A stretch of 64,000 bases of DNA. It comes from Steroidobacteraceae bacterium. Lineage in GTDB: Bacteria > Pseudomonadota > Gammaproteobacteria > Steroidobacterales > Steroidobacteraceae. Where the stretch lies: NCBI GenBank assembly GCA_035502995.1, contig DATJTW010000023.1, positions 53,445-117,444 on the forward strand, in the 5' to 3' direction. Each line of letters begins with the position of its first letter. Position 1 is the first letter of the stretch. Positions 23,231 to 47,890 of this stretch are shown one piece after another. The translations under genes were made by a program, and so were the position numbers. Below the pieces are notes generated by a model. The model had not been told where the DNA came from. It saw only the letters and a program-made list of their open reading frames with translations, and ran no database searches.

Positions 23231-25423
23231 ATGAAGCTGCTCTCGTTCGTTGCCACGACGCTGATCGCCGCGACCGCGATGGCCGCACCCATCGACCGCC
23301 ACGCGCTCGTGATGCGGCACAACCCTACGGTCACGACCATAGACCGCGCCGCGCCGCTGATGGTCGGCAACGGCAACCTGGCCTTCACGGCCGACATCAC
23401 CGGCCTGCAGACGTTTCCCGAACAGTATTCGCCGCTGGTGCCGCTGCTCATCGAATCGCAATGGGGCTGGCACAGCTTTCCGAATCCGGGCGGCGTCACG
23501 CTCGATGCGGCGCAGGTCGACGTCGGCGTGCCGGGCGTGCGCGGCAAGTATCCGTACCTGCGCAACTGGGACGAGGCGAAGAATCCCGCGATCCAGTGGC
23601 TGCGCGAGAACCCGCACAAGTTCTCGCTGGGCCGCGTGGGCCTGGCGCTGACGAATGGCGCCGGCAAACCCGCCGCGTTCGCGGATCTCTCGGCCAGCAA
23701 ACAAACACTGGATCTGTGGAGCGGACGGCTCTCGAGCTCGTTCACGTTCGACGGCGAGCCCGTCGAGGTCGAGACGTCGATGCACCCGGTCCGCGACGTC
23801 CTGATCGTGCGCGTAAAGTCGCGGCTCGTGTTCGACGGCCGGCTCGGCGTCGATCTCGCGTTCCCCGGCGTGAACAAGGCGATCAACCCGGATCCCGCCG
23901 ACTGGTCGAACCCCGACGCGCACGTCACGAACGAGATCTCGCGCGGCGCCGGCGGCCTCGAGCTCACGCGGCAGATCGACGACACGACGTACGCCGTGCG
24001 CGTCGCGTCGGATCGCGAGCTCGACATCGCGACGCCGGCGCGGCATCGCTACCGGCTGACCGCGCCCGGCGCCACGCAGATGACGCTGCTGATCGAGTTC
24101 TCGCCGCGGGTCGATCCGGAGAAACTGCCCGACGCCGAGACCGCGCGCGCCACCGTCGCGCGCTGGTGGAACGACTACTGGACGCGCGGCGCGATGGTCG
24201 AGCTGAAGGACAGCAAGGATCCGCGCGCCGACGAGCTCGAGCGCCGCATCGTGTTGTCGCAGTACCTGACGGCCGTGAACAGCGCCGGCGTCTATCCACC
24301 GCAGGAAGAGGGCCTGTTCTCCAACAGCTGGAACGGCAAGTTCCATCTCGAGATGCACGCCTGGCACTCGGGGCATTTCGCGAGCTGGGGCCGGCCCGAC
24401 CTGCTCGAGCGCAGCATGTCCTGGTACGTGGCCCAACTACCGAACGCGCAGGCGCGGGCGCGCTCGCACAAGCTGCGCGGCGCGTGGTGGCCGAAGATGG
24501 TCGGGCCCGAAGGGCGCGAGAGCCCGAGCACGGTCAATCCGTTCATCATGTGGCAGCAGCCGCATCCCATCTACCTGGCCGAGTCGCTGTGGCTGGACAC
24601 CCGGGACCCGAAGACGCTCGACACATATAAAGGAGTGGTGTTCGGCACGGCCGACCTGCTGGCCAGCTGGGCGACGTACGACCGGAAGACGAAACGCTTC
24701 CGTCTCGGCCCGCCGATCATCCCGGCGCAGGAGACGCACGCGCCGCTGACCACGTTCAACCCGACGTTCGAGCTCGAGTACTGGCGCTTCGGGTTGAAGA
24801 CGGCGCAGGCGTGGCGCGAGCGGCTCGGCCTGAAGCGCGATCCCAAGTGGGACGACGTGTTGAAGAAGCTGTCGCCGCTGCCGCAGAAGGACGGGCTCTA
24901 TCTGGCCGCGGAATCGCAGCCGGACCTGTGGGAAAAGACGCGCACGCCGGCCTGCTCGAAGAAGGCGGGGCCGGACTGCCCGAACCGTGATCATCCGTCG
25001 TTCGTCGCCGCGCTCGGACTGTTGCCGGGTGAAGACGTCGATCACGAGACCATGCGCCGCACGCTCGATGCCGTCATCAGCGACTGGGACCTGCGCCAGA
25101 CCTGGGGCTGGGACTGGCCGATGCTGGCGATGACCGCGTGGCGGCTCGGCGAGCGCGACCGGGCGTTCGATTTCCTGTTGAGCGAGGCGAAGAATTTCCA
25201 GTTCGGGGCGAGTGGGATGACGCCGCGGTTACACATTGCGGACGACGCCGCGCCGCATGCGGCGGGGACGGAGGACACGCCGGGATATCGGCGGGTTGCC
25301 GAGACCTATTTCCCCTCGAATGGCGCGTTGTTGCTGGCCGTCGCGCTGATGGCTAACAATCCCGGCGAGCCGGGTGACGGCCGCTGGGTGATCCACGCGG
25401 AAGGGTTTCGCCCGGTTCCTTAA
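23231..25423 (+). CDS. secreted 730-aa hypothetical protein (possibly an (alpha/alpha)6 glycoside-hydrolase-like enzyme)
   Basis: Signal peptide MKLLSFVATTLIAATAMAAP. Codon usage is coherent, but I recognise no diagnostic motif. The hydrolase guess rests only on size, secretion and the neighbouring oxidoreductase. Confidence 0.5.
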   Translation: MKLLSFVATTLIAATAMAAPIDRHALVMRHNPTVTTIDRAAPLMVGNGNLAFTADITGLQTFPEQYSPLVPLLIESQWGWHSFPNPGGVTLDAAQVDVGVPGVRGKYPYLRNWDEAKNPAIQWLRENPHKFSLGRVGLALTNGAGKPAAFADLSASKQTLDLWSGRLSSSFTFDGEPVEVETSMHPVRDVLIVRVKSRLVFDGRLGVDLAFPGVNKAINPDPADWSNPDAHVTNEISRGAGGLELTRQIDDTTYAVRVASDRELDIATPARHRYRLTAPGATQMTLLIEFSPRVDPEKLPDAETARATVARWWNDYWTRGAMVELKDSKDPRADELERRIVLSQYLTAVNSAGVYPPQEEGLFSNSWNGKFHLEMHAWHSGHFASWGRPDLLERSMSWYVAQLPNAQARARSHKLRGAWWPKMVGPEGRESPSTVNPFIMWQQPHPIYLAESLWLDTRDPKTLDTYKGVVFGTADLLASWATYDRKTKRFRLGPPIIPAQETHAPLTTFNPTFELEYWRFGLKTAQAWRERLGLKRDPKWDDVLKKLSPLPQKDGLYLAAESQPDLWEKTRTPACSKKAGPDCPNRDHPSFVAALGLLPGEDVDHETMRRTLDAVISDWDLRQTWGWDWPMLAMTAWRLGERDRAFDFLLSEAKNFQFGASGMTPRLHIADDAAPHAAGTEDTPGYRRVAETYFPSNGALLLAVALMANNPGEPGDGRWVIHAEGFRPVP

Positions 25424-26023: not shown

Positions 26024-26380
26024 ATGAAAAATGTCAGCTCCGCCCAGTCCACCCCGCCGCCGCGACAGGTCCCGCAGCAGGTGCAGCGCCACGAACGCGC
26101 CGAGCGTCCCGAGCGCGTCGAACGCACCGAGCGGAACGTCGAGAAGCAGGCGGTCACCGTCACGCGCTCCACGACGGAGTCGCATCACTCGGTCGAGTCC
26201 CGCGGCCGGCAGGAAGCGGTGCTCGATTCGGAGCACAAGCTGCTGTACATGCGGAACGCGGCGCGGGTTCATGAGGATTCCAACGAGGTGTCGCGGACGC
26301 TGACGTATACGCAGCAGGCGGCGCACGTGACGACGTCGGTGAATGATGGGGCGCAGCCGTTGCTGGACGTGCGCGTCTAG
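26024..26380 (+). CDS. hypothetical charged, low-complexity protein
   Basis: 118-aa ORF with an ER-rich repeat (HERAERPERVERTERNVEK). Composition differs from GC-shadow ORFs. Confidence 0.45.
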   Translation: MKNVSSAQSTPPPRQVPQQVQRHERAERPERVERTERNVEKQAVTVTRSTTESHHSVESRGRQEAVLDSEHKLLYMRNAARVHEDSNEVSRTLTYTQQAAHVTTSVNDGAQPLLDVRV

Positions 26381-26445: not shown

Positions 26446-27417
26446 ATGACCCTCACCGAGCTCCGCTACATCGTCGCGCTGGCCCAGGAGCAGCATTTCG
26501 GCCGTGCCGCCGAACGTTGCCACGTCAGCCAGCCGACGCTGTCGATCGCGGTCAAGAAGCTCGAGGACGAGCTCGGCGTCCTGTTCGAACGCGGCAAACA
26601 GAAGATCCTGCCGACGCCGCTGGGCGAGAAGATCGTCGCCATGGCGTCGCGCGTGCTCGAGCAGGCGGCCGCCATCAAGGACGTCGCCGAAGCCGACAAG
26701 GACCAGCTCGAAGGCCCGATCGCGCTCGGCACGCTGCCGACCATCGGTCCCTATCTGCTGCCGCAGTTCATCCCGCTGCTGCAGGAGACGAGCCGCAAGC
26801 TCTCGCTGTACGTCGAGGAAGGCACCACCACCGAGCTCGCCAACAAGCTGCGCAACGGCGACCTCGACGCGCTCCTCATCACGCAGCCGTTCGCCGAATC
26901 CGACGTCGTCACGCAGCCGCTGTTCGACGAACCGTTCATGCTGCTGATGCCGGCGGATCACAGGCTGGCCAGCCGCGCCCAGATCGCCGCCACCGACCTC
27001 GACCCGAACGAGCTGCTGTTGTTAGGCGAGGGCGCCGCGCTGCGCGAGCAGATCCTCGCCGCGTTCCCGCATCTCGATCCGAGCCGCGAATCCGGCGCCG
27101 GCGTGCGCACGTTCACGCAGGGCGCGACGCTCGAGACGCTGCGCCATATGGTCGCCTCGCGGCTCGGCATCACGATCCTGCCGCAGAGCGCCGCCGAGGC
27201 ACCGCTGTACGCGCCGAACCTGCTGATCACCCGGCCGTTCGCGCCGCCGGTGCCGAAACGCAGCCTGGCGCTGGCCTGGCGCGTGAGCTTCCCGCGACAT
27301 AAGGCGATCGACCTGCTGCGCAAGGCGATCCAGGCGAGCAGCTCGGCGTACTGGAACTACAATACCGCCCGCACGCCGGATGCCCCGGGTGTCATGGTGG
27401 AGAACCAGAACTGGTGA
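26446..27417 (+). CDS. LysR-family regulator, OxyR paralogue lacking the redox-sensing cysteines
   Basis: 323-aa ORF. The N-terminus MTLTELRYIVALAQEQHFGRAAERCHVSQPTLSIAVKKLEDELGV closely matches my recollection of Pseudomonas OxyR. The region equivalent to E. coli GHC(199)LRDQAMGFC(208) reads GEGAALREQILAAF. Confidence 0.85.
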   Translation: MTLTELRYIVALAQEQHFGRAAERCHVSQPTLSIAVKKLEDELGVLFERGKQKILPTPLGEKIVAMASRVLEQAAAIKDVAEADKDQLEGPIALGTLPTIGPYLLPQFIPLLQETSRKLSLYVEEGTTTELANKLRNGDLDALLITQPFAESDVVTQPLFDEPFMLLMPADHRLASRAQIAATDLDPNELLLLGEGAALREQILAAFPHLDPSRESGAGVRTFTQGATLETLRHMVASRLGITILPQSAAEAPLYAPNLLITRPFAPPVPKRSLALAWRVSFPRHKAIDLLRKAIQASSSAYWNYNTARTPDAPGVMVENQNW

Positions 27418-28907
27418 CGAAACCCATCTCGCGCATCGCGATCATCGGCGGCGGCACGTCGGGCTGGCTCGCGGCCGCGATGTTGTGCCAGCACCTGAAG
27501 CGCGAGATCACGGAGATCGAGCTGATCGAGAGCGAGGAGCTCGGCACGATCGGCGTCGGTGAATCGACGGTGCCGCCGTTCGTGGGGTTGATCCACCGGC
27601 TCGGCATCGACGAGAACGAATTCCTGCGCGCGACGGACGGCACGTACAAGTTAGGCATCAAGTTCGTCGGCTGGCACGAGCGCAACGACTCGTATTTCCA
27701 CCCGTTCGGCGTCATCGGCAAGCCGATCGGCAGCCACGACTTCTACCAGTGCTGGCTGAAGGCGCGTTCGCAGGGCGACACGTCGGAGCTGCAGGATTTC
27801 TCGCCGTGCACGGTGATGGCGGAGCAGGGGCGGTTCTTCCACCCGGCGAAGGCGCGCAACACGCCGGTGGGCGGGGCCAACTACGCGCTGCACGTCGACG
27901 CGTTGCTGGTGGCGAAGTACCTGCGCGGTTATTCCGAGGCGCGCGGGCTGAAGCGCACCGAGGGCAAGGTCGTCTCGGTGCGGCAGCGCGAGAACGGATT
28001 CATCGACAGCGTGACGCTCGAGAACGGCCGCGAGATCCACGCGGACTTCTTCATCGACTGCACGGGCTTCAAGGCGCTGCTGATCGGCCACACGCTCGGC
28101 GTCGAGAGCCACGACTGGTCGAACTATCTACCCTGCGATCGCGCCGTCGCCTGCAAGACGGAGAACGCCGGCGCACTGACGCCGTACACGCGCGCGGCGG
28201 CACAGGCGGCGGGCTGGACGTGGCGCATCCCGCTGCAGAAACGCGTCGGCAACGGCTACGTGTATTCGAGCCAGTTCGCCAGCGACGCGACGGCGAAGGC
28301 GACGCTGCTGCGCTCGCTCGACGCGGCCGTGCTCGACGAGCCGCGCGTCATCCCGTACACCACGGGACATCGCAAGCAGTTCTGGAAGTCGAACTGCCTG
28401 TCGCTGGGTTTGTCATCCGGGTTCATCGAGCCGCTCGAGGCGACGTCGATCCACCTGATCGCGCGCGGCATGGATTTCTTCCTGCGCTACTTCCCGGACC
28501 GCGACTGCGATGCGGCGCTGGTGCGCGAGTACAACCGGCGCATGACGGCGGATTTCGAAGAGGTGCGCGACTTCATCGTGCTGCACTACTCGGCGACGCG
28601 TCGCGACGACACGCCGTTCTGGCAGCACTGCCGCAATCTGCCGCTGCCGGACACGCTGCGGGAACGCATCGAGCTGTTCAAGGCGCACGGCGCGATGCGC
28701 GAGGGCGTCGACGAGCTGTTCCGCGCGTCGAGCTGGCAGTCGGTGTTCGAAGGCATGGGCATCCGGCCCGCGAGCCCGAATCCGCGCGTGGAGAATCTCG
28801 ACTACGCGCAGATCGAGCAGACGCTGCGGAACGCGAAGGCGGCGATCGCCGGCATGGTCGAACATCTGCCGACGCACGAGCAGTTCCTGAGGACGCAGAC
28901 GGCGTAA
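27414..28907 (+). CDS. flavin-dependent halogenase homologue (tryptophan-halogenase family), copy 1
   Basis: 497-aa ORF whose GTG start overlaps the LysR stop (GTGA). Motifs IIGGGTSGW, GVGESTVPP, YKLGIKF (PrnA Lys79 equivalent), GWTWRIP (WxWxIP), FIEPLEATS (Glu346 equivalent). Confidence 0.88.
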   Translation: MTKPISRIAIIGGGTSGWLAAAMLCQHLKREITEIELIESEELGTIGVGESTVPPFVGLIHRLGIDENEFLRATDGTYKLGIKFVGWHERNDSYFHPFGVIGKPIGSHDFYQCWLKARSQGDTSELQDFSPCTVMAEQGRFFHPAKARNTPVGGANYALHVDALLVAKYLRGYSEARGLKRTEGKVVSVRQRENGFIDSVTLENGREIHADFFIDCTGFKALLIGHTLGVESHDWSNYLPCDRAVACKTENAGALTPYTRAAAQAAGWTWRIPLQKRVGNGYVYSSQFASDATAKATLLRSLDAAVLDEPRVIPYTTGHRKQFWKSNCLSLGLSSGFIEPLEATSIHLIARGMDFFLRYFPDRDCDAALVREYNRRMTADFEEVRDFIVLHYSATRRDDTPFWQHCRNLPLPDTLRERIELFKAHGAMREGVDELFRASSWQSVFEGMGIRPASPNPRVENLDYAQIEQTLRNAKAAIAGMVEHLPTHEQFLRTQTA

Positions 28908-28909
28908 TT

Positions 28910-28940
28910 GGGGACGTACCCTATTTTCTTGTAACAAAGC
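28910..28940. repeat. degenerate copy of REP-like family 1
   Basis: GGGGACGTACCCTATTTTCTTGTAACAAAGC starts 3 nt after the Hal1 stop. It aligns loosely with GGGGACATTCCTCATTTGCTAGCAAAAGG at 19280. Confidence 0.4.
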
Positions 28941-29003
28941 GCGGGCGGGTCGGGTTCCGGTCATCGCCAACTTCGCTATCATCCGCCGCGAAGGGGAACC
29001 ACG

Positions 29004-30524
29004 ATGAACAACACCGAATCCGCGCCCCGCGCGGTCAAGAAGGTCGTCATTGCCGGCGGCGGCACCGCGGGCTGGGTCGCGGCCATGGCGCTGTCGAAGT
29101 ACTTCGGCACCGTGCTCGACATCACGCTGATCGAGTCCGAGGAGATCGGTACCATCGGTGTCGGCGAATCCACCGTGCCGCCCATCGTCGGCTTCCATCG
29201 CGTGATGGGCATCGACGAGCGCGACTTCATGCACAAGTGCGCGGCCACGTTCAAGGTCGCGATCTGGTTCGAGAACTGGGGCAAGGTCGGCGACTGGTAC
29301 CTGCATCCGTTCGGCCGCTACGGCCAGTCGTCGCAGATGATCGAGTTCTACCACTTCTGGCTGCACGCGCGTTCGCTCGGCCTCAAGGTGCCGATCGGCG
29401 AGTACTGCTACGAGTGGCTGGCCGCCGTCAAGAACCGCTTCGCGCTGCGCGAGAACCCGCGCATCAACTACGCCTATCACTTCGACGCCGCGTTGTACGC
29501 TCGTTACCTGCGCGGCCTCTCCGAGAAACGCGGCGTGAAACGCGTCGAGGGGAAGATCAAGACCGTGCGCGTGCGCGATGGCCACGGCGACGTCTCCGCG
29601 CTGGAGCTCGAGAGCGGGCAGATCATCGAGGGCGACCTCTTCATCGACTGCACCGGCTTCCGCGGCCTGCTCACCGAAGGCGCGCTGCAGACGGGTTACG
29701 AAGACTGGTCGCACTGGCTGCCCTGCGACAGCGCCGTCGCGTTCCAGACGCGCGTCGACAAACCGGCCGCGCCTTACACGGCGTGTTACGCGCACACCGC
29801 GGGCTGGCGCTGGAACATCCCCGTGCAGCATCGCGTCGGCAACGGCGTGGTGTTCTGCAGCCAGTACATGTCGGCCGATGAAGCGCGGGCGTTGCTGCTG
29901 AAGGATTCGGGCGGCACGCCGGTGAAGGACCCGTGGCTGGTGAAGATCAAGGCCGGGCGGCGGCTGAAGGCGTGGAACAAGAACGTCGTGGCGTTCGGCT
30001 TGTCGTCGGGGTTCATCGAGCCGCTCGAGTCGACCAGCATCCACACGATCACGACCGCGGCGATGCGCCTGGTGAACCTGTTCCCGTTCAACGGCGTGAA
30101 CGACGCGCTGCGCGACCAGTACAACGAGCTCGCCAAGTACGAATTCGAACGAATCCGCGATTTCGTCGTGATGCACTACCACTACAACCAGCGCGAGGAT
30201 GCGCCGTTCTGGAAGATGTGCCGCGAGATGGAGATCCCGGAGTCGCTGCGCACGCGCGTCGAGCTGTTCCGCCAGGGCGGGCACGCGTATTCGAAGGACA
30301 ACGAGCTGATGACGGTGGACTCGTGGGTGTCCGTGGCGATGGGCCAGCACATCGAGCCGCAGACGTACAACCGCTTCGCGAGCGTGGGAGACGGCGAGCT
30401 GCGCGACTTCCTGACGAAGCATCGCGCGCAGGTCGCGTCGATCGTCAACGCGTTGCCGGCGCACGCGGATTTCGTGAAGCAGTATTGCGGGGCGGATGAG
30501 AGCGCGTGGAACGTGGGCAGGTAG
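29004..30524 (+). CDS. flavin-dependent halogenase homologue, copy 2
   Basis: 506-aa ORF with AAGGGGA about 7 nt upstream of the ATG. Motifs IAGGGTAGW, GVGESTVPP, FKVAIWF, GWRWNIP, FIEPLESTS. Confidence 0.9.
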   Translation: MNNTESAPRAVKKVVIAGGGTAGWVAAMALSKYFGTVLDITLIESEEIGTIGVGESTVPPIVGFHRVMGIDERDFMHKCAATFKVAIWFENWGKVGDWYLHPFGRYGQSSQMIEFYHFWLHARSLGLKVPIGEYCYEWLAAVKNRFALRENPRINYAYHFDAALYARYLRGLSEKRGVKRVEGKIKTVRVRDGHGDVSALELESGQIIEGDLFIDCTGFRGLLTEGALQTGYEDWSHWLPCDSAVAFQTRVDKPAAPYTACYAHTAGWRWNIPVQHRVGNGVVFCSQYMSADEARALLLKDSGGTPVKDPWLVKIKAGRRLKAWNKNVVAFGLSSGFIEPLESTSIHTITTAAMRLVNLFPFNGVNDALRDQYNELAKYEFERIRDFVVMHYHYNQREDAPFWKMCREMEIPESLRTRVELFRQGGHAYSKDNELMTVDSWVSVAMGQHIEPQTYNRFASVGDGELRDFLTKHRAQVASIVNALPAHADFVKQYCGADESAWNVGR

Positions 30525-30527
30525 GAG

Positions 30528-31799
30528 TTGGCACCAACCCCAACCTTGATCTTCTTCCTGCAGATGTTCGTCATCCTCGCGGCCTGCCGCCTGTGTGGCT
30601 GGCTCGTGCGTCGCGGGTTGCGCCAGCCGCAGGTCATCGGCGAGATGATCGCCGGCGTGCTGCTCGGCCCGTCGTTGTTAGGCGCCATCGCGCCGCAGGT
30701 TCAGCAGTTCCTGTTCCCGCCGGAATCGCGGCCGATGCTCGGCGTCGTCGCGCAGCTCGGCATCGCCATCTACATGTTCCTCGTCGGCCTCGATTTCCGC
30801 AGCGCGGACTTCAAGTCGAACGTGCGCGGCGCCGTCTCCGTCTCGCTGACCGGCATCGTCGTGCCGTTCATCGTCGCGATCCTCGCCACGCCGACCCTGC
30901 TCGACATCCCCGACCTCTTCACCGCCCACGTCTCGCGCTTCGACGCGACGCTGTTCCTCGGCGCGGCCATCGCGATCACCGCGTTCCCCGTGCTCGCGCG
31001 CATCATCAACGACCGCAATCTGAACGGCACGAGCATCGCCACGCTCGCGCTCGCCGCCGCGGCGATTGGTGACGCCATCGCGTGGTGCGTCGTGGCCGTC
31101 GTGCTTGCGAGCCTCGGCGCGGGCACACGCGTCGCCGTCATCGCGATCGTCGGCGGCGCCGTCCTCACCGCCGTCCTCATCCTGCTGGGCCCGAAGCTGC
31201 TCGCGCCGCTCGGCCGTCTCGCGGAGCGCGAGCACGCGGCGGGTCGCGCGCTGAGCCCGACCGTCCTCGCGATCGCATTGATGGCCTGCACGTTGTCCGC
31301 GTACGTCTCCGACGCCATCGGCCTGCACGCCGTGTTCGGTGCGTTCCTCATCGGCACCGCCATGCCGCGCGGCGTGTTCGCCGAACGCCTGCACGAACTG
31401 CTCGCGCCGTTCACGCTCGTGTTCCTGCTGCCCGTGTTCTTCACGTTCTCCGGTCTGAACACGCGACTGACGATGGTCAACACGCCGACACTCGCGTGGA
31501 TCGCCGTTGGCATCCTCGTCGCTTCCATCTTCGCGAAGTTCGTCGCCTGCTGGGGCGCTGCCCGCATCTCGGGACAGAGCAACGATCGCGCGCTCGGCAT
31601 CGGCGCGCTGATGAATGCGCGCGGTCTCACCGAGCTGATCATCATCAACATCGGATTGCAGGCCGGGATCATCGGCGTGTCCCTGTTTTCGATCCTCGTG
31701 TTGATGGCGATCGTGACGACCCTTATGGCCTCGCCCTTGTTCGAGCTCGTGTACGGTCGGGTCGCGCGCGTACGGGGAGAAATTCCACCACTCCATTGA
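30528..31799 (+). CDS. CPA2-family cation:proton antiporter, membrane domain only (no RCK/KTN domain), copy 1
   Basis: 423-aa ORF starting (TTG) 3 nt after the Hal2 stop; the start is uncertain. Na+/H+-exchanger family N-terminus FFLQMFVILAACRLCGWL..QPQVIGEMIAGVLLGPS and about 12 hydrophobic segments. Confidence 0.85.
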   Translation: MAPTPTLIFFLQMFVILAACRLCGWLVRRGLRQPQVIGEMIAGVLLGPSLLGAIAPQVQQFLFPPESRPMLGVVAQLGIAIYMFLVGLDFRSADFKSNVRGAVSVSLTGIVVPFIVAILATPTLLDIPDLFTAHVSRFDATLFLGAAIAITAFPVLARIINDRNLNGTSIATLALAAAAIGDAIAWCVVAVVLASLGAGTRVAVIAIVGGAVLTAVLILLGPKLLAPLGRLAEREHAAGRALSPTVLAIALMACTLSAYVSDAIGLHAVFGAFLIGTAMPRGVFAERLHELLAPFTLVFLLPVFFTFSGLNTRLTMVNTPTLAWIAVGILVASIFAKFVACWGAARISGQSNDRALGIGALMNARGLTELIIINIGLQAGIIGVSLFSILVLMAIVTTLMASPLFELVYGRVARVRGEIPPLH

Positions 31800-31845
31800 T
31801 CAAATTAATGGTGTGCGCGATGCGCGTTGTGGATATAAACGCGCC

Positions 31846-33369
31846 ATGCAAGGAAAGACGACGCACGCACGAAGCGATGCACCCGGTGCCGTGAAGAAAG
31901 TGGTGATCGCCGGCGGCGGCACGGCGGGCTGGATGACGGCCGCGGCGTTGTCGACGTACTTCGCGGATCTCGTCGAGATCACGCTGGTCGAGTCGGAGGA
32001 GATCGGCACCATCGGCGTCGGCGAATCGACGGTGCCGCCGCTGCAGAAATTCCACCGCGTGCTCGGCATCAGCGAGCGCGAGTTCATGACCGAATGCGCG
32101 GCGACGTTCAAGCTCGGCATCTGGTTCGAGAACTGGGGCCATCTCGGCGAGAAGTACCTGCATCCCTTCGGCGTGTACGGCCAACCCTCGCTGACCTGCG
32201 ACTTCCACAACTTCTGGCTGCGCGGCCGCGAGATCGGCCTCGACGAGCCGCTCGGCGCGTACAACCACGAGTGGTCGGCCGGCATGCAGGGCAAGTTCGC
32301 GCTGCACGAGAATCCGCGCATCAACTACGCGTACCACTTCGACGCCGCGCTGTACGCGCGTTTCCTGCGGCGCATCTGCGAACGGCGCGGCGTGCGCCGC
32401 GTGGAAGGGAAGATCCGGCACGTGCGGCTCGCGGCGAACGGCGACGTGCAGGCGCTCGAGCTCGCCGACGACCGCGTCGTGGAGGGCGACTTCTTCGTCG
32501 ACTGCACGGGCTTCCGCGGCCTGCTGATCGAGCAGGCGCTGCACACCGGCTACGAGGACTGGTCCAACTATCTACCCTGCGACAGCGCGGTCGCGTTCCA
32601 GACGCGCGTCGACACGCCGCCCGCGCCGTACACCGCCTGCTACGCGCACACGGCCGGCTGGCGCTGGAACATCCCCGTGCAACATCGCGTCGGCAACGGC
32701 GTCGTGTATTGCAGCCGTTACATGTCGGACGACGAGGCGCGGCACCTGCTCGTCACGGAGTCCGGCGGCACGCCGGTGAAGGAGCCGTGGCAGATCCGCA
32801 CGCGCGCCGGACGGCGCAAGAAGGCGTGGAACCGCAACGTCATCGCCATCGGGTTGTCGAGCGGGTTCGTCGAGCCGCTGGAGTCGACCAGCATCCACAT
32901 GATCATGTCGGCGGCGAGCCGGCTGCTGCACTTCTTCCCGTTCAGCGGGATGAAGGCGCCCGTGGTCGAGCACTACAACCGGCTGGCGCGCGCGGAGATC
33001 GAGCACATCCGCGATTTCGTCTGCATGCACTATTACCTGACGACGCGCGACGATTCGCCGTTCTGGCGCTACTGCCGCGCGATGGAGATCCCGGAGTCGC
33101 TGCGCCGGCGCATCGATCTCTTCAGGAAGGAAGCGTACGTGTACGTCGAGGACGGCGACCTGTTCGCGATCGATTCGTGGATCGCGGTGATGATGGGGCA
33201 GGGCATCGAGCCCGAGAGTTACCACCATTTCCCGCGCACGAACGACGGCGAGCTGACGCGCTATCTCGCGCAGATGCGCGAGCGGGTCGCGAAGGTGGTG
33301 GCGCCGCTGCCGGCGCATGCGGATTTCGTGCGCAAATACTGCGGGGCCAGCGAGGCTGCGTGGGGATAG
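31846..33369 (+). CDS. flavin-dependent halogenase homologue, copy 3 (paralogue of copy 2)
   Basis: Track ORF 31813..33369. ATG 31846 is preferred by comparison with the copy 2 N-terminus. Motifs IAGGGTAGW, GVGESTVPP, FKLGIWF, GWRWNIP, FVEPLESTS. Confidence 0.88.
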   Translation: MQGKTTHARSDAPGAVKKVVIAGGGTAGWMTAAALSTYFADLVEITLVESEEIGTIGVGESTVPPLQKFHRVLGISEREFMTECAATFKLGIWFENWGHLGEKYLHPFGVYGQPSLTCDFHNFWLRGREIGLDEPLGAYNHEWSAGMQGKFALHENPRINYAYHFDAALYARFLRRICERRGVRRVEGKIRHVRLAANGDVQALELADDRVVEGDFFVDCTGFRGLLIEQALHTGYEDWSNYLPCDSAVAFQTRVDTPPAPYTACYAHTAGWRWNIPVQHRVGNGVVYCSRYMSDDEARHLLVTESGGTPVKEPWQIRTRAGRRKKAWNRNVIAIGLSSGFVEPLESTSIHMIMSAASRLLHFFPFSGMKAPVVEHYNRLARAEIEHIRDFVCMHYYLTTRDDSPFWRYCRAMEIPESLRRRIDLFRKEAYVYVEDGDLFAIDSWIAVMMGQGIEPESYHHFPRTNDGELTRYLAQMRERVAKVVAPLPAHADFVRKYCGASEAAWG

Positions 33370-33483
33370 CCTCTCCATAGGCAGAATCAATCAGCCGCCG
33401 ACTGGCCGTCCACCACCCCCACTGCCTATAACGACACCCACAACGACAAGGACCTCAACGGTCCGACGATCAACGGGGGTTCC

Positions 33484-34770
33484 ATGGGTGTCGCGAAGCT
33501 GTCGATCACGTTCTTTTTGCAGATGGCCGTCATCCTGGCCACCTGCCGCGTCGTCGGCTGGCTCGGCCAGAAGTACCTGAAGCAGCCGCAGGTCGTCTGC
33601 GAAATGATCGCCGGCGTGCTGCTCGGCCCGTCGCTGTTCGGCCTCGTCGCCCCCGACATCCAGAAGGTCGTCTTCACGCCCGAGAACAAGGGCGTGCTGT
33701 ATGTCGGCGCGCAGTTCGGCGTCGGCCTCTACATGTTCCTGGTCGGCCTCGGCTTCCGCACCGACCACTTCCGCAAGAACGTGCACAAGGCCGCGTCGGT
33801 CTCGCTGGCCGGCATGTTCGTCCCGTTCCTCGTCGCCATCGCGATCACGCCGCTGCTGATGGAGGTGCCCGGCCTGTTCGCGGCAACGGCCTCGCGTTTC
33901 GACGCGACATTGTTCATGGGCGCGGCCATCGCCATCACCGCGTTCCCGATGCTCGCGCGCATCATCCACGAGCGCGGCCTGTCGGGCACGCCGCTCGGCA
34001 CGCTGGCGCTGTCGGCTGGCGCCATCGACGATGCCGCCGCGTGGTGCGTGCTGGCCGTGGTGCTCGCCAGCTTCGGCAACGCCGGCCACGGCGTCGCGTA
34101 CACGGCGATCATCGGCGGCGTGATCTTCGCGGGTGTCGTGCTGTTGATCGTCCCGCGGCTGCTGGCGCCGCTGGCGCGCCGCGCGGAGCGCGAGGCCGCA
34201 GCCGGCAAACCGCTGAACTCCAGCATCTTCGCCATCGTGCTGACGCTCTTCATGCTCAGCGCGTTCACCGCCGACGCCATCGGCCTGCACGCCGTGTTCG
34301 GCGGCTTCCTGCTCGGCTGCGTGATGCCGCGCGGCATTCTCGCCGACAGCATCCGCAAGCAGCTCGAGCCGTTCACCGTCATCGTGCTGCTGCCGATGTT
34401 CTTCACCTACTCGGGCCTCAACACGCAGCTCACGCTGGTCGCCGATCCCTATCTACTGGCCGTCGCGCTCGGCGTGCTCGCGTGCTCCATCCTCGCGAAG
34501 TTCGGCGCGTGCTGGGCCGCGGCGCGGCTCTCGGGCCAGGACAACCGCACGGCGCTCGGCGTCGGCGCGCTGATGAACGCGCGCGGACTGATGGAGCTGA
34601 TCATCATCAACATCGGCCTGCAGGCCGGCGTGATCGGCCCGGCGTTGTTCTCGATGCTGGTGCTGATGGCGATCGTCACCACGCTGATGGCGTCGCCGCT
34701 GTTCGAAGCGGTGTACGGCCGCCACGCGCGCGCGAGTGGCGAGCTCGGAGCAATCGAAAGCGCGCGTTGA
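33484..34770 (+). CDS. CPA2-family cation:proton antiporter, membrane domain only, copy 2
   Basis: 428-aa ORF with GGGGG upstream of the ATG. FFLQMAVILATCRVVGWL..QPQVVCEMIAGVLLGPS. 70 of 117 residues are identical to copy 1 in the stretch I aligned by hand. Confidence 0.88.
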   Translation: MGVAKLSITFFLQMAVILATCRVVGWLGQKYLKQPQVVCEMIAGVLLGPSLFGLVAPDIQKVVFTPENKGVLYVGAQFGVGLYMFLVGLGFRTDHFRKNVHKAASVSLAGMFVPFLVAIAITPLLMEVPGLFAATASRFDATLFMGAAIAITAFPMLARIIHERGLSGTPLGTLALSAGAIDDAAAWCVLAVVLASFGNAGHGVAYTAIIGGVIFAGVVLLIVPRLLAPLARRAEREAAAGKPLNSSIFAIVLTLFMLSAFTADAIGLHAVFGGFLLGCVMPRGILADSIRKQLEPFTVIVLLPMFFTYSGLNTQLTLVADPYLLAVALGVLACSILAKFGACWAAARLSGQDNRTALGVGALMNARGLMELIIINIGLQAGVIGPALFSMLVLMAIVTTLMASPLFEAVYGRHARASGELGAIESAR

Positions 34771-35018
34771 TCATGCGTTGAAAGTTTTTCCTTCCCCGGT
34801 CGATGACGTCGGCAAGCCCCCCGCTCGACCACGTCATCGATCGGGCGAGGGATTTCTCGCGAGAGGGATGAGCCCTACGGGTTTTCCCATCGCAGAATGA
34901 TTCCATCGCTGTGACTGCGATCACTCAGTCTCTGCACCTCGATGCCGTTAAATGACACATGAAGTGTCTGGTTATCGAGGGGCTCCCGCGTCCGCGGCGA
35001 GTGTCTCCCCGGGGGAAA

Positions 35019-36239
35019 ATGATTTTCCGCATCTCCATGTTCCTGGTCCTCTCGATGGGCGCGGCGTCGCTGTGCGCGCAGGATTTCCGCGAGGATCGCT
35101 TCGCCGTGCGCGGCTTCGGCACGATCGCCGCGGTGACGCACGACACCGATGACGTCGAGTTCCGCCGCAACACCGGCCAGTCCGATGGCGCGGGCGCCGG
35201 CGAAGTGGAGTTCGCCAGCGATTCGCTGCTCGGCGTCCAGCTGAGCGCGAAGCTGCCGGCCGACTTCGACGTCGTCGTGCAGGGCGTCACGCACCAGCGC
35301 GCCGACGGCGACTGGGTGCCGCAGCTGACGCAGGGTTACCTGCGCTGGTCGCCGGACGATTCGTTCGTCGTGCGCGCCGGCCGCGTCGGTTACGACATCT
35401 ATCTCCTCGCCGAGTCCCGCCAGGTCGGCTACTCCTATCTATCGGCGCGCCCGTCGCCGGAGTTCTACGGCCAGATCAGCAACGACGACATCGACGGCGG
35501 CGATCTCACCTACAAGCGCCGCATCGGCGGCGGCCTGGTGCGCGCGCGCCTGTTCGCCGGCGCAGGCGACGGCGAGCTCGCGTTCGAGGACGGCACCAGC
35601 TCCGAATCGCAGCAGCGCCTCGTCGGCGCGACGCTCGACTACCTGCGCGGCGGCTGGACCGCGCGCATCGCGATGGTCCAGATCAGCTACGACGCCGGCA
35701 ACGACATCCCGCTGCTGGTCGCCGGCCTGCGCGCCACCGGGCTGCCGCAGGCGGCGTCCATCGCCAACGATCTCGACGAGCGCGTCTACCACTCGTTCGG
35801 CGTGCAGGCGGGCGTCGCCTACGACGACGGTCCGCTGCAGGCGCAGCTGCTGTACGGCTTCGCCAACTCGGATTCGATCTCCGGCCCCGATTTCAACAAG
35901 GTGCTCGCCGAGGTCGGCTATCGCCTGGACCGCTGGACGCCGTTCGTCGCGTTCGCGACCTCGCGCGACCGCAACCCGATCCGCACCACCGGCCTGCCCG
36001 ACCTGCCGATGTTCGCGCCGCTGAACGGCGCCATCGTGCGCATCCAGGAAGTCACGCGCTCGACGCAGCACACGGCTACGGCCGGCGTGCGCTACGACCT
36101 GTCGTCGCATTTCGATTTCAAGCTGCAGGTCGATCGCATGCACGCGGCCGACACCTCGCTGCTGTTCGACCGCCGGCCGGACGCCGGCAGCCCGGTGGAT
36201 CTCACCGTGTTCACCGCCTCCGTCGACTTCGTGTTCTGA
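35019..36239 (+). CDS. outer-membrane beta-barrel (porin-like) protein
   Basis: Track ORF 34959..36239 trimmed to ATG 35019. Signal peptide MIFRISMFLVLSMGAASLCAQ, alternating strand pattern and a C-terminal aromatic residue (SVDFVF). Confidence 0.75.
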   Translation: MIFRISMFLVLSMGAASLCAQDFREDRFAVRGFGTIAAVTHDTDDVEFRRNTGQSDGAGAGEVEFASDSLLGVQLSAKLPADFDVVVQGVTHQRADGDWVPQLTQGYLRWSPDDSFVVRAGRVGYDIYLLAESRQVGYSYLSARPSPEFYGQISNDDIDGGDLTYKRRIGGGLVRARLFAGAGDGELAFEDGTSSESQQRLVGATLDYLRGGWTARIAMVQISYDAGNDIPLLVAGLRATGLPQAASIANDLDERVYHSFGVQAGVAYDDGPLQAQLLYGFANSDSISGPDFNKVLAEVGYRLDRWTPFVAFATSRDRNPIRTTGLPDLPMFAPLNGAIVRIQEVTRSTQHTATAGVRYDLSSHFDFKLQVDRMHAADTSLLFDRRPDAGSPVDLTVFTASVDFVF

Positions 36240-36244
36240 CCGCC

Positions 36245-36679
36245 ATGAAACGCCTCGTCGCCATCCTGATGCTCGCCCTGGCGCTGCCCGTCGCGCGTGC
36301 CGACGACGCGCCCGCGGGCATCGTCGTCATCGTGAACCCGGCGAGCGGCGTCGAGCGCCTGACGCGCAGCGAGGTCATCGACATCTTCCTCGGCCGCTAT
36401 CGCAAGTTGCCCACCGGGCAGCTCGCGCTGCCCATCGACGTCGCGGAGGGCGGCCCGGAGCGCGCGCAGTTCTACCAGCAGCTGGTGAAGAAGAGTCCGG
36501 CGGAGATGAGTTCGTACTGGGCGCGATTGGTGTTCTCCGGCCAGACCTCGCCGCCGTTCCAGGTGCCGGACGTGAAGACCGCGCTGCAGCTCGTGGAGAG
36601 CAATCCGAACGCCATCGCCTACGTGGACCGCGCCGCCGTGAATCCGAAAGTGAAGGTGGTGCTTGAAATCCGGCCCTGA
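36245..36679 (+). CDS. small periplasmic PstS/PBP-like (type 2 binding-protein fold) protein
   Basis: 144-aa ORF with signal peptide MKRLVAILMLALALPVARA. PBP_like_2-type pattern IVVIVNPASGVERLTRSEVIDIFLGR ... YWARLVFSG ... AIAYVD. Confidence 0.65.
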   Translation: MKRLVAILMLALALPVARADDAPAGIVVIVNPASGVERLTRSEVIDIFLGRYRKLPTGQLALPIDVAEGGPERAQFYQQLVKKSPAEMSSYWARLVFSGQTSPPFQVPDVKTALQLVESNPNAIAYVDRAAVNPKVKVVLEIRP

Positions 36680-38300
36680 CAAACGCGCAGGCTTCGCGGC
36701 CTTCCTGCCGCGCAGCATCGTCGCGCGCACCAGCCTCTCGATCCTGGTGCTGGCCGTGATCATGGGCCTGCTGTTCTCGATCACCGCGTCGTGGCGCGTG
36801 CGCGCCGCCGAGCACGACCGCCTGATGTCGCGCGTCGACGAGCTGGCGTCGACCGTGGAGAGCACGGTCAGCGTCGCCTGTTTCGTCAACGACACGAAGC
36901 TGGCGCAGGAGATCGCCAACGGCCTGATGAAGAACCGCATCGTCGCGGGCGTGACGATCACGTCTGGTCGGACGATCCTGTTCGGCACCGGCACCATTAT
37001 CGAAGCCAACGCGCGCGCGCACGCGAAGGTCGACAAGATTACGCGGCCCGTCTATTCGCCGTTCGAGAAGGGCCCGGCGATCGGCGGCCTCACGATCTAC
37101 GTGTCGCACGAGGAGATCGAGGCGCAGGCCACGGCGTACTCGGGCTACATCACGTGGATCCTCAGCCTGCAGGTGGCCATCGTCGCGGCCGCGGTGGCGT
37201 TCCTCGTCTATCTACTGGTGACGCGACCGATCAAGGGCATCTCCGACGAGCTGCACCGGCTCGAGGTCGCCTCGGGCGTGCAGATCGCGCTGCGCGGCCG
37301 GCGGCGCACGGACGAGATCGGGCAGCTGGTCGGCGACGTCAACGCGCTGATCACGCGGCTCACCGACGTGCTGCAGAAGGAACACCAGCTGCGCGTGGCG
37401 CAGGAGATCAGCGAGCGGCGCATGCGGCTGGTCTTCGAGAAGGCGGACACCGGCATCCTGGTGCTCGACCCGGCCGGCGCGGTGCAGTCGTGCAACCCCG
37501 CGTTCGTGCGCATCCTCGGCGCCGAGGCCGCGGAACCGAACGTGCGGCTGGCCGACCTGCTGGCGCCGCACGGCGAGCGCATCGCGCGGCTGATCGGCGA
37601 GAGCCGCGCGTCCGGCGAACCGCGCGACGCGGATTTCGAGATCGACCGCGGCGGAGTGCGCGGGTCGATCTGGGTGGAGCTGTCGGTGAATCCGCTCGGC
37701 CACAACCTGTTGCAGGGCCTGCTGACCGACGTCACCGAGCGCAAACGCGCGGAGTCGGCGGCGCGCGAGCTGGCGTCGCGCGACACGGTGACGGGATTGC
37801 TGAACCGGCGCGGTCTCGATGCTTCGCTCGCTAACCTGCTGACCACGAACACCGCCCAGCATCCGCTCGCGCTGCTGCAGATCGACCTGGATTACTTCAA
37901 GGAAGTGAACGACACGTTCGGCCACGAGGCCGGCGACCGCGTGCTGCGGGAAGTTGGAGCCATTCTCGAACGGTCGGTGCGCCGTACAGACGTCGTTGCC
38001 CGTACGGGCGGCGACGAATTCGTCGTCGTGCTGCCGGGCATCGAGAGCGTCGAGAAGGCGAAGGACATCGCGGTGAACGTGATCGCGGGCGTGTCGGTGC
38101 CGATCGTGCTGTCGGCAGGGCGGCGCGCGGAGATCGGCGCGAGCATCGGCATCGCGCTCGCGGTGCCGGGCGAGGGCGCGTCGGCGTTGCTGCGCCGCGC
38201 CGATACGGCGATGTACACGGCGAAGCAGTCCGGCCGCGGGCGCGTGTGCCTCGCGCAGACCGGCGGCGACGAGCCCCCCGCGACCCACGCCGCCGCGTAG
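36663..38300 (+). CDS. membrane-bound diguanylate cyclase (2 TM, HAMP-like linker, PAS, GGDEF)
   Basis: 545-aa ORF (TTG start overlaps the previous gene by 17 nt; start uncertain). PAS region (ILVLDPAGAVQSCNPAFVRILG). Intact GGDEF (ARTGGDEFVVV) with an upstream RxxD I-site (RRTD). Confidence 0.88.
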   Translation: MKSGPDKRAGFAAFLPRSIVARTSLSILVLAVIMGLLFSITASWRVRAAEHDRLMSRVDELASTVESTVSVACFVNDTKLAQEIANGLMKNRIVAGVTITSGRTILFGTGTIIEANARAHAKVDKITRPVYSPFEKGPAIGGLTIYVSHEEIEAQATAYSGYITWILSLQVAIVAAAVAFLVYLLVTRPIKGISDELHRLEVASGVQIALRGRRRTDEIGQLVGDVNALITRLTDVLQKEHQLRVAQEISERRMRLVFEKADTGILVLDPAGAVQSCNPAFVRILGAEAAEPNVRLADLLAPHGERIARLIGESRASGEPRDADFEIDRGGVRGSIWVELSVNPLGHNLLQGLLTDVTERKRAESAARELASRDTVTGLLNRRGLDASLANLLTTNTAQHPLALLQIDLDYFKEVNDTFGHEAGDRVLREVGAILERSVRRTDVVARTGGDEFVVVLPGIESVEKAKDIAVNVIAGVSVPIVLSAGRRAEIGASIGIALAVPGEGASALLRRADTAMYTAKQSGRGRVCLAQTGGDEPPATHAAA

Positions 38301-47721: not shown

Positions 47722-47890
47722 TCGACTGGCCTCCCAAGCTGTAAACGGACGCGAGAGCGACGCGTAGATTGCGCCGCGTTATGGGAAGAAAACCGTGTCT
47801 TGGTTCGCAGCCGTAATAGTTTGGAGGCGACAGAGTGGGCAATATGTAGAACGCGCGAAACACGTCACGCGCCCAAGAAAAGGAATTCCG

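Follow-up and report, generated by a model that had tools for sequence, protein, structure and literature searches.

The 64,000-nucleotide window analysed here, a stretch of contig DATJTW010000023.1 from a soil bacterium of the Steroidobacteraceae, carries on its + strand a six-gene accessory locus in which a LysR-type regulator and three flavin-dependent halogenases (Hal1, Hal2 and Hal3) are interspersed with two membrane antiporters (CPA1 and CPA2, both of the CPA2 family of cation/proton antiporters). Halogenase and antiporter genes of these kinds are adjacent far more frequently than expected by chance, in a pattern that spans Alpha-, Beta- and Gammaproteobacteria, and the two are very probably functionally coupled. 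All parts of the locus come from known families, and the conserved neighbourhood, its operator and the variant ion site of CPA1, which features Gly-Asp (GD) in place of Asp-Asp (DD), are undescribed in the open-access papers searched. A first-pass annotation of the window had regarded the arrangement as new. No description of the halogenase-antiporter pairing was found in the open-access literature searched, but a link between halogenation and antiporters has precedents in glycopeptide and fluorinase gene clusters.

Adjacency of halogenases (PF04820) and antiporters (PF00999) was surveyed in 80 species-representative genome loci, which were fetched with the antiporter as the sole query. Fetched comparison stretches carry L numbers, and their genes were called by a custom open reading frame (ORF) script. 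A halogenase is present in 44 of the 80 antiporter-selected loci, and the pairing, recurring in three proteobacterial classes, extends beyond this genome. Distance from the antiporter served as an internal control: within 2.5 kb there are 10.7 halogenase genes per 100 kb (41 genes, 382 kb surveyed), at 2.5-5 kb 0.58 per 100 kb (2 genes), and in the 625 kb located 5-10 kb away none. Type B ('AFDDA') antiporter loci, found in Alpha- and Betaproteobacteria, have a halogenase within 2 kb in 32 of 46 cases. Of 29 type A ('AIDDA') loci, 8 have a halogenase, all eight gammaproteobacterial, and 6 of the 7 loci carrying a GD antiporter have one within 5 kb. When genomes were chosen from the side of a further halogenase clade, HAL-B, a PF00999 gene was found nearby in all five. 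The four genomes chosen from the Hal1 side comprise one with an intact antiporter, two with decayed antiporters and one with an ATP-binding cassette (ABC) importer. The pair is also found on Sphingomonas plasmids, in which the RefSeq annotation reads PIN, Phd, cation:proton antiporter and tryptophan halogenase family protein, in this order.

Antiporter-adjacent halogenases form three clades, namely the Hal1 type (accompanied by LysR), the Hal2/3 type and HAL-B (closest to 2pyx, 9ltb and 9lu2). The antiporters vary as well. A second PF00999 subfamily, 27% identical to CPA1 and CPA2, is found beside halogenases in a gammaproteobacterial metagenome-assembled genome (MAG; L019, 8643-9815), in Asticcacaulis (L171, 6590-7849) and in a metagenome contig (L102, 1-609), its members being ~61% identical to each other, and a third subfamily (41% identity) is found beside a halogenase in L135 and L161. 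Repeated assembly, rather than one inherited block, is implied by the three halogenase clades and by antiporters whose subfamilies stand at 27%, 41% and 60-85% identity, combined in varied order and orientation. This argues against the absence of any functional link, according to which the genes would share inherited synteny, or hitch-hike in a mobile cassette stabilised by a PIN/Phd toxin-antitoxin pair, the window representing a local tandem amplification. That explanation is consistent with the PIN-Phd pair beside the antiporter in 27 loci, with the cassette on Sphingomonas plasmids, with highly variable flanks, with a halogenase often located on the opposite strand, and with the occurrence of either gene without the other. 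In Gammaproteobacteria, by contrast, the antiporter is coupled to the operon of regulator and halogenase through a shared LysR-type operator, and we consider a fortuitous association improbable.

The operator is located between Hal3 and CPA2. It consists of a 15-nt box of the pattern ATAG-N7-C[AT]AT (ATAGGCAGAATCAAT, 33377-33391), with an extra ATAG at 33366, and is followed by a -10-like TATAAC at 33427-33432, 52 nt 5' of the CPA2 ATG. The box occurs once in the window, and none of 100 shuffles matches it. An identical box pattern is found at the equivalent position in L006, L165, L019, L164, L167 and in the Cellvibrio loci L010 and L011; L008 and L007 have almost the same box, as judged by eye. 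In box-bearing loci, the box lies a few bases past the stop of the preceding gene, and a TATAAA-like -10 element begins ~35 nt after the box end. The strict pattern was detected in 9 of 175 loci, ahead of a transporter gene in eight and ahead of a decayed copy in the ninth (L004). In L167, the box precedes the ABC importer that stands in for the antiporter, and in Cellvibrio it lies inside the intergenic region separating the divergent LysR and antiporter genes. A second copy of the operator was sought before LysR, Hal2 and the downstream porin gene, where only chance-level matches were obtained, at up to 3 mismatches. No box is found ahead of CPA1, which is tightly linked to Hal2 instead.

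This conserved element predicts a separate LysR-type-dependent promoter for CPA2, the transporter being most likely under the control of the regulator. Because CPA2 carries its own predicted operator and promoter, the locus would not be a single operon; the one apparent operon proposed in the first-pass annotation is contradicted, for CPA2, by the conserved operator and -10 element. The distance of 3 nt assigned there to the Hal2 stop and the CPA1 start was also revised, as the start backed by orthologues is the TTG at 30546, 21 nt past the Hal2 stop (alternative starts are found at 30528 and 30564). In L084, the start of the CPA1 orthologue overlaps the stop of the preceding halogenase in a GTGA sequence. 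The same overlap, reported for the LysR stop and the Hal1 GTG start, is indeed seen in the window, and LysR-Hal1 coupling is kept in every Steroidobacteraceae and Cellvibrio locus examined. A terminator and promoter scan of the 23-40 kb interval was uninformative (10 terminator-like sites versus 8.3 expected, 0 sigma-70 promoter-like sites).

The regulator is 56% identical to Pseudomonas aeruginosa OxyR (4x6g, E 1e-100). Its description as an OxyR-like LysR protein is upheld. Both redox cysteines are lost, however, and the score against the NCBIfam OxyR model NF008361 (222.6 bits) is under the 329-bit cut-off. C199 is replaced by Ala, C208 by Phe and H198 by Ala, and the protein reads GEGAALREQILAAFP at the position where P. 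aeruginosa OxyR reads GEGHCFRDQVLEACP. The cysteines are gone from all Steroidobacteraceae orthologues, while the Cellvibrio orthologues in L008 (8771-9736) and L011 (3508-4473) retain the His-Cys...Cys arrangement of OxyR. The regulator-halogenase-antiporter unit may be peroxide-responsive in one order (Cellvibrio) and ligand-responsive in the other (Steroidobacteraceae).

The ancestry of the regulator bears on the possibility of a KefF-KefC-like unit that defends the cell against oxidants or electrophiles. In such a unit, an OxyR-type regulator would sense oxidative or halogenating stress and induce a flavoenzyme together with a K+/H+ exchanger, which would acidify the cytoplasm protectively. 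KefF and KefG are known examples of flavoproteins encoded alongside a CPA2 exchanger. Placement of the regulator in the OxyR clade, retention of both redox cysteines in L008 and L011, and resemblance of the operator to the OxyR element ATAG-N7-CTAT fit this proposal, as do a peroxiredoxin/SCO1-like gene in the L167 operon and a thioredoxin gene beside HAL-B in L172. Yet the KTN/RCK domain through which Kef systems are gated is missing, the cysteines are lost in all Steroidobacteraceae regulators, alpha- and betaproteobacterial loci have no LysR gene, and a halogenase makes reactive halogen species rather than removing one. A defence function is, in our opinion, very unlikely.

Both antiporters match PF00999 well above the cut-off of 26.2 bits (172.6 bits for CPA1 and 187.1 bits for CPA2), and are 62% identical over their full length. 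NCBIfam TIGR00932 scores (132 and 128 bits) are under the 238-bit cut-off, and the KefB model NF002973 scores 41 bits versus a cut-off of 804. No Pfam match to an RCK, KTN or TrkA domain was obtained in either protein; their length is 417-428 residues versus ~600 for KefB/KefC. Alignment to NapA (4bwz/5bz2) revealed that CPA2 keeps all residues equivalent to D156-D157 (AIDDAAAW), K305 (ILAKFG) and R331. CPA2 is 71-85% identical to the antiporters of L019, L006, L165 and Cellvibrio, and is a conservative orthologue of the antiporter located beside LysR-Hal1 in Steroidobacter and Cellvibrio. The DD motif is found in 76 of 83 surveyed antiporters. In contrast, CPA1 and its six orthologues read AIGDA, with Gly at the position of the first ion-site Asp, the Lys in transmembrane helix 10 being kept. 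The AlphaFold model of CPA1 (pLDDT 67.6) has NapA as its best match (TM 0.75-0.79), followed by KefC and NhaP. Fold and profile place CPA1 in the family, although its ion site is a variant one. The view of CPA1 as a decaying copy was rejected, since at least 120 intact full-length relatives (clusters) at 76% identity or more are found in metagenomes. The motif ITAFP[VM]LARI in transmembrane helix 4 may resemble that of CHX/Kha1-type K+/H+ exchangers.

Whole-length matches to PF04820 were obtained for the three halogenases (598, 606 and 616 bits for Hal1, Hal2 and Hal3, respectively; curated cut-off 21). Hal2 and Hal3 are 65% identical over their full length, and Hal1 is 42% identical to either. 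All three keep the flavin adenine dinucleotide (FAD) motif GGGT[AS]GW, GVGESTVPP, GW.W.IP (GWTWRIP or GWRWNIP), the Lys motif and EPLE. In an alignment of 51 halogenases, the Lys motifs (YKLGIKF, FKVAIWF and FKLGIWF) and the Glu motif F[IV]EPLE[AS]T sit in common columns, and the catalytic Lys and Glu of the window halogenases align with those of Xcc4156 and BrvH; equivalence to K79 and E346 of PrnA is inferred via these columns. The motifs are thus intact, as first annotated, including the Lys and Glu equivalents, and the three enzymes look catalytically competent as far as conserved residues can tell. All three align end to end with BrvH and Xcc4156 (E 1e-124 to 1e-151), and the alignments with BrvH, Xcc4156 and 9luq reach residues 492-497. 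The best PDB matches of Hal1 are 9luq, 6frl and 6y1w. Hal2 best matches 6y1w (Xcc4156; residues 7-497, E 6e-151), whereas its alignment with PrnA stops at residue 425. The PrnA alignment ends at 425 in Hal1 as well, but RebH and other tryptophan halogenases align to residue 495 of this protein. A C-terminal module that binds tryptophan characterises the tryptophan-specific PrnA/RebH type. BrvH and the Xanthomonas enzymes brominate indole derivatives in vitro, not free tryptophan, and their native substrates are unknown (PMC7336383).

Halogenase-to-antiporter ratios in the family are 3:2 in the window and 1:1, 2:1, 2:2 or 1:0 elsewhere, and the fixed 1:1 pairing assumed at first is not sustained by these relatives. 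Hal1 homologues at 72-77% identity carry the names Steroidobacter or Povalibacter, and the closest genome loci are Steroidobacteraceae MAGs. The simple order of LysR, Hal1, operator and antiporter is found in Steroidobacter cummioxidans and S. agaridevorans. Hal3 has no counterpart in the close relatives examined. In L004 and L166, the CPA1-like gene is directly followed by an intact operator with its -10 box, with no Hal3 between, and then by CPA2-type remnants that precede the porin gene. The L004 remnant (2341-2860) retains N-terminal codons, and that of L166 (12030-12460) is an internally deleted copy. The persistence of the box and of the CPA2-type remnants indicates that an arrangement with both antiporters predates the L004 and L166 lineages, in which CPA2 later decayed. 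In the Steroidobacteraceae MAG locus L167 (9581-13190), no antiporter is found after LysR-Hal1 and the operator; the genes located there encode an NMT1/SsuA-type ABC importer and an AhpC/SCO1-like redoxin. In L164, a truncated antiporter gene precedes a gene of the major facilitator superfamily (MFS).

The CPA2 type with its operator appears, from these arrangements, to be the ancestral partner of Hal1. The simplest reading is that an ancestral LysR-Hal1-operator-CPA2 unit later gained Hal2-CPA1 and, in the window genome, Hal3. The ancestral core would have consisted of an OxyR-derived LysR regulator translationally coupled to a Hal1 of the BrvH/Xcc4156 type, followed by the LysR-type operator and promoter driving the NapA-like CPA2; a second cassette, with Hal2 linked to the divergent CPA1, plus Hal3, would have been inserted between Hal1 and the operator. 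Paralogy of Hal2 and Hal3, and of CPA1 and CPA2, was correctly recognised in the first-pass annotation, although the shared residues counted there (74/99 and 70/117, respectively) are slightly high, a recount giving 68/99 and 66/117. The [halogenase + antiporter] DNA blocks are 73-76% identical to each other, and duplication of the two genes as a block is plausible. It is not demonstrated, however, as a sister relation between the CPA1 clade and the Steroidobacteraceae CPA2 type is recovered in just 2 of 100 neighbour-joining bootstraps. Antiporter and halogenase trees were obtained by neighbour-joining only, and the attachment point of CPA1 is not fixed by the tree.

Concerning function, we tentatively favour the possibility that the antiporter acts as an ion/pH housekeeping partner for cytoplasmic halide chemistry. 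With O2, cytoplasmic halide and FADH2 supplied by a housekeeping reductase, the halogenases would yield a halogenated small aromatic compound other than tryptophan. The regulator would co-induce the antiporter, which would swap K+ or Na+ for H+, carrying fluxes tied to the build-up of anions against the inside-negative potential. Halogenation would consume halide and protons, and the antiporter flux would accompany this consumption. The antiporter would not be a carrier of the organic substrate, and CPA1, having lost one ion-site aspartate, would probably differ in stoichiometry or ion preference.

The cation/proton part of this proposal stems from the NapA site residues kept in CPA2, the predominance of DD among the surveyed antiporters and the NapA fold of the CPA1 model. 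The ion/pH reading is also favoured because no biosynthetic genes are found nearby. Non-ribosomal peptide synthetase or polyketide synthase genes, carrier proteins, other scaffold-building enzymes and flavin reductases are all missing among the window genes scanned, small ORFs having been only partly scanned. TonB-dependent receptors, SapC and JmjC gave no tblastn match in the window (12 representatives per family) and no Pfam match in its large ORFs. The usual halogenase partners are therefore missing from the scanned genes, as had been noted. In 4 of the 5 genomes selected by HAL-B, the halogenase gene is flanked, away from the antiporter, by another inorganic-ion transporter gene (HPP, NhaA or CNNM/CorC), which counts for the ion reading. 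HPP adjoins the antiporter in four betaproteobacterial loci, and in L044 and L060 the halogenase has as its neighbour a gene resembling Amt ammonium transporters, identified by eye alone. Ion-transport genes near the pair are located at 4228-4932 in L168, 4198-4908 in L169, 3625-4908 in L170 and 3375-4559 in L171, and downstream of the antiporter in L034, L047 and L061. Antiporters have been reported in comparable settings, such as the Kef-type membrane antiporters inside glycopeptide gene clusters (PMC11727664), the Na+/H+ antiporter flH inside fluorinase clusters (PMC3999930) and the Na+/H+ antiporters in fluoride riboswitch regulons (PMC11139923). HPP, which belongs to a nitrite-transporter family, is the sole candidate anion carrier seen near these halogenases.

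Several points weigh against a housekeeping role in ion and pH balance. A CPA2 antiporter is by itself unable to transport halide, and the scanned window genes include no anion transporter. The NMT1/SsuA-type importer in the antiporter slot of L167 suits the import of an anion or of an organic substrate no less well. Downstream of the antiporter there is often a porin-like or AlgE-like outer-membrane protein, hinting at a dedicated solute route, and the OxyR ancestry of the regulator keeps the oxidant-defence explanation alive, cysteine loss notwithstanding. The association itself is incomplete. As many as 36 of the 80 antiporter loci have no halogenase, and in Alpha- and Betaproteobacteria the halogenase is usually on the strand opposite the antiporter. 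An antiporter is found near 5-6 of 80 metagenomic Hal2/3-like halogenases (50-74% identical), that is, less than 10%. Most of these halogenases are found instead in a TonB receptor-SapC-JmjC arrangement, and the link is thus asymmetric. SapC or JmjC was found in only 1-2 of 82 antiporter-selected loci, and in L112, L116 and L161 the antiporter is joined to a TonB receptor-SapC-JmjC-halogenase cluster.

Some of these data would suit a different role, in which the antiporter-fold protein is an inner-membrane carrier of the organic substrate or product of the halogenase (e.g., a cationic indole or amine) and the barrel allows passage through the outer membrane, in an uptake-and-modify or modify-and-export route. 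The slot after Hal1 is always occupied by a transporter, but of varying kind (mostly CPA2-type, NMT1-type ABC in L167, MFS after a truncated antiporter in L164). The window, L004, L005 and L166 each have an outer-membrane barrel after the antiporter; in L172 and 10 alphaproteobacterial loci an AlgE-like barrel unrelated to the window porin lies there, and the three composite clusters of L112, L116 and L161 combine the antiporter with receptor genes. The canonical inorganic-cation site (DD, Lys and Arg) is nevertheless kept in the antiporters, the two kinds of outer-membrane protein have no detectable homology, and we know of no PF00999 member that carries organic cations. Transport of an organic compound by the antiporter is accordingly judged unlikely. 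On balance, sequence and neighbourhood lean towards the ion/pH reading over the handling of hypohalous acid or electrophiles.

A broader, speculative proposal, to which we attach rather low confidence, is that halogenases of the BrvH/Xcc4156 and 2pyx types and NapA-like antiporters constitute an unrecognised widespread unit for halide acquisition or handling and halogenation in soil and freshwater Proteobacteria. The antiporter would be mechanistically needed for halogenation in the cytoplasm at low external halide, and HPP-type anion carriers or outer-membrane channels would be added in some genomes. It is not known which substrates the proteobacterial 'tryptophan halogenase' homologues (BrvH, the Xcc enzymes and 2pyx), a large group, act on in nature or what their role is, though they are being developed as brominating biocatalysts. 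If true, this proposal would supply the first physiological handle on their native role. A conserved, co-regulated antiporter partnership is a testable lead to ion, halide or pH physiology, away from classical secondary-metabolite tailoring, and bears on the rarely asked question of how bacteria overcome an inside-negative membrane potential to supply their cytoplasmic halogenases with halide. The partnership may likewise account for the recurrent membrane antiporters of glycopeptide and fluorinase clusters. For genetics, the locus offers a natural variant series (1:1, 2:1, 3:2, and an ABC importer replacing the antiporter), a GD ion-site variant and a defined predicted operator.

The organisation of the locus and of the adjacent genes is reported in Table 1. 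The window has a G+C content of ~68%. The six + strand genes and their domains, as first annotated, were corroborated by Pfam profile searches, by the G+C content at third codon positions (GC3; 0.90-0.94 from LysR to CPA2) and by the gene calls of the source assembly (ENA contig k141_3402739, 96.8 kb), which match the ORFs used here.

Table 1. Features of the halogenase-antiporter locus and of the genes downstream, with positions in the window.
Feature	Position	Strand	Evidence
LysR-type regulator, OxyR clade	26446..27417	+	Pfam HTH_1 and LysR_substrate
Hal1, flavin-dependent halogenase, 9luq/BrvH/Xcc4156 clade	27414..28907	+	PF04820, E 1e-179
Hal2, flavin-dependent halogenase closest to Xcc4156	29004..30524	+	PF04820, E 4e-182
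CPA1, NapA-like CPA2-family antiporter, 417 residues, no RCK	30546..31799	+	PF00999, E 1.5e-50
Hal3, Hal2 paralogue (65% identical)	31846..33369	+	PF04820, E 7e-185
Predicted LysR-type operator and -10-like element	33377..33432	+	Pattern conserved in relatives
CPA2, NapA-like CPA2-family antiporter, 428 residues, no RCK	33484..34770	+	PF00999, E 6e-55
Porin-like outer-membrane beta-barrel protein	34959..36239	+	Weak OMP_b-brl and Porin_4 matches
Small secreted protein, 144 residues	36245..36679	+	Faint PstS-like match (NCBIfam TIGR02136, E 0.0016, under cut-off)
Membrane PAS-GGDEF diguanylate cyclase	36663..38300	+	Pfam GGDEF, E 2e-43, plus PAS

Beyond CPA2, the + strand encodes the porin-like protein, the 144-residue secreted protein, the PAS-GGDEF cyclase, two metallopeptidases and a GH9 enzyme. 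The porin-like gene is conserved after the antiporter slot in L004, L005 and L166; the secreted protein and the GGDEF cyclase, the genes of which overlap (the cyclase gene starts at 36663 and the other ends at 36679), are conserved in L005 and L166, while L004 has the porin alone. Whether the secreted protein and the cyclase are members of the module is uncertain. The porin-like protein has no PDB sequence match and only weak Pfam matches, and BLASTP and hidden Markov model comparisons revealed no homology to the alphaproteobacterial AlgE-like barrel, the resemblance being positional only.

In Alpha- and Betaproteobacteria, PIN-domain (VapC-like) and Phd/YefM antitoxin genes are located divergently upstream of the type B antiporter in 27 loci of the L020-L080 range, in L168-L171, in L173 (3993-4701) and in L174 (4027-4715). 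Flanks vary beyond the PIN/Phd pair. It is uncommon for the position of a toxin-antitoxin pair to be so deeply conserved, and this one may stabilise a mobile cassette or be its regulator. Upstream of the window locus, a 730-residue protein with a signal-peptide-like N-terminus (23231-25423) is conserved in L001, L002, L019 and L166, beside a GFO/IDH/MocA oxidoreductase gene; it has no Pfam, NCBIfam or PDB sequence match. A 118-residue ORF just upstream of LysR (26024-26380) features an Arg/Glu-rich low-complexity stretch (ERAERPERVERTER), has a GC3 of 0.87 and is called as a gene in the source assembly, but no homologue was found in any fetched locus. A 1205-residue ORF at 47795-51412 has a coding-like GC3 of 0.87 and no Pfam match.

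The components of the locus resemble several known systems. The window halogenases share the FAD motif, WxWxIP, the catalytic Lys and Glu and end-to-end alignment with BrvH (6frl) and Xcc4156 (6y1w). In contrast to the latter, for which no genomic partner is reported in the literature examined, they are partnered by a cation/proton antiporter and a LysR regulator. NapA of Thermus thermophilus (4bwz, 5bz2), a CPA2 Na+/H+ antiporter with no regulatory domain, shares the 13-helix fold of the CPA1 model, and RCK is absent in both; identity to the window antiporters is only ~27%, however, and CPA1 has Gly at the D156 position. The regulator has the same two domains as OxyR (P. aeruginosa 4x6g, Escherichia coli 1i69), with an operator of the ATAG-N7-CTAT flavour, but differs from it by the replacement of C199, C208 and H198, the sub-cut-off score and the predicted co-transcription with a halogenase. 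As in the KefF-KefC and KefG-KefB systems, a flavoenzyme gene lies directly beside a CPA2 exchanger gene, and KefC is among the top structural matches of the CPA1 model. In Kef exchangers, however, the KTN/RCK domain, absent in the window antiporters, binds glutathione adducts and the flavoprotein, and KefF is a flavodoxin-like quinone reductase, unlike the window halogenases.

The neighbourhood consisting of a TonB-dependent receptor, SapC, JmjC and a tryptophan halogenase was described by Iyer et al. 2010 (PMC2938197). It features the same halogenase family and is the majority context of the nearest metagenome relatives of Hal2 and Hal3, whereas the window has no receptor, SapC or JmjC. Glycopeptide clusters, through their StaN-type and 'KefB membrane component' genes, and fluorinase clusters, through flH, also associate a membrane-only antiporter of the Kef or Na+/H+ type with halogenating chemistry, in a role that is likewise unexplained (PMC11727664, PMC3999930). 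These clusters are large, actinobacterial and endowed with NRPS or fluorinase genes; in the window, where no biosynthetic machinery was found, it is the pair itself that is conserved.

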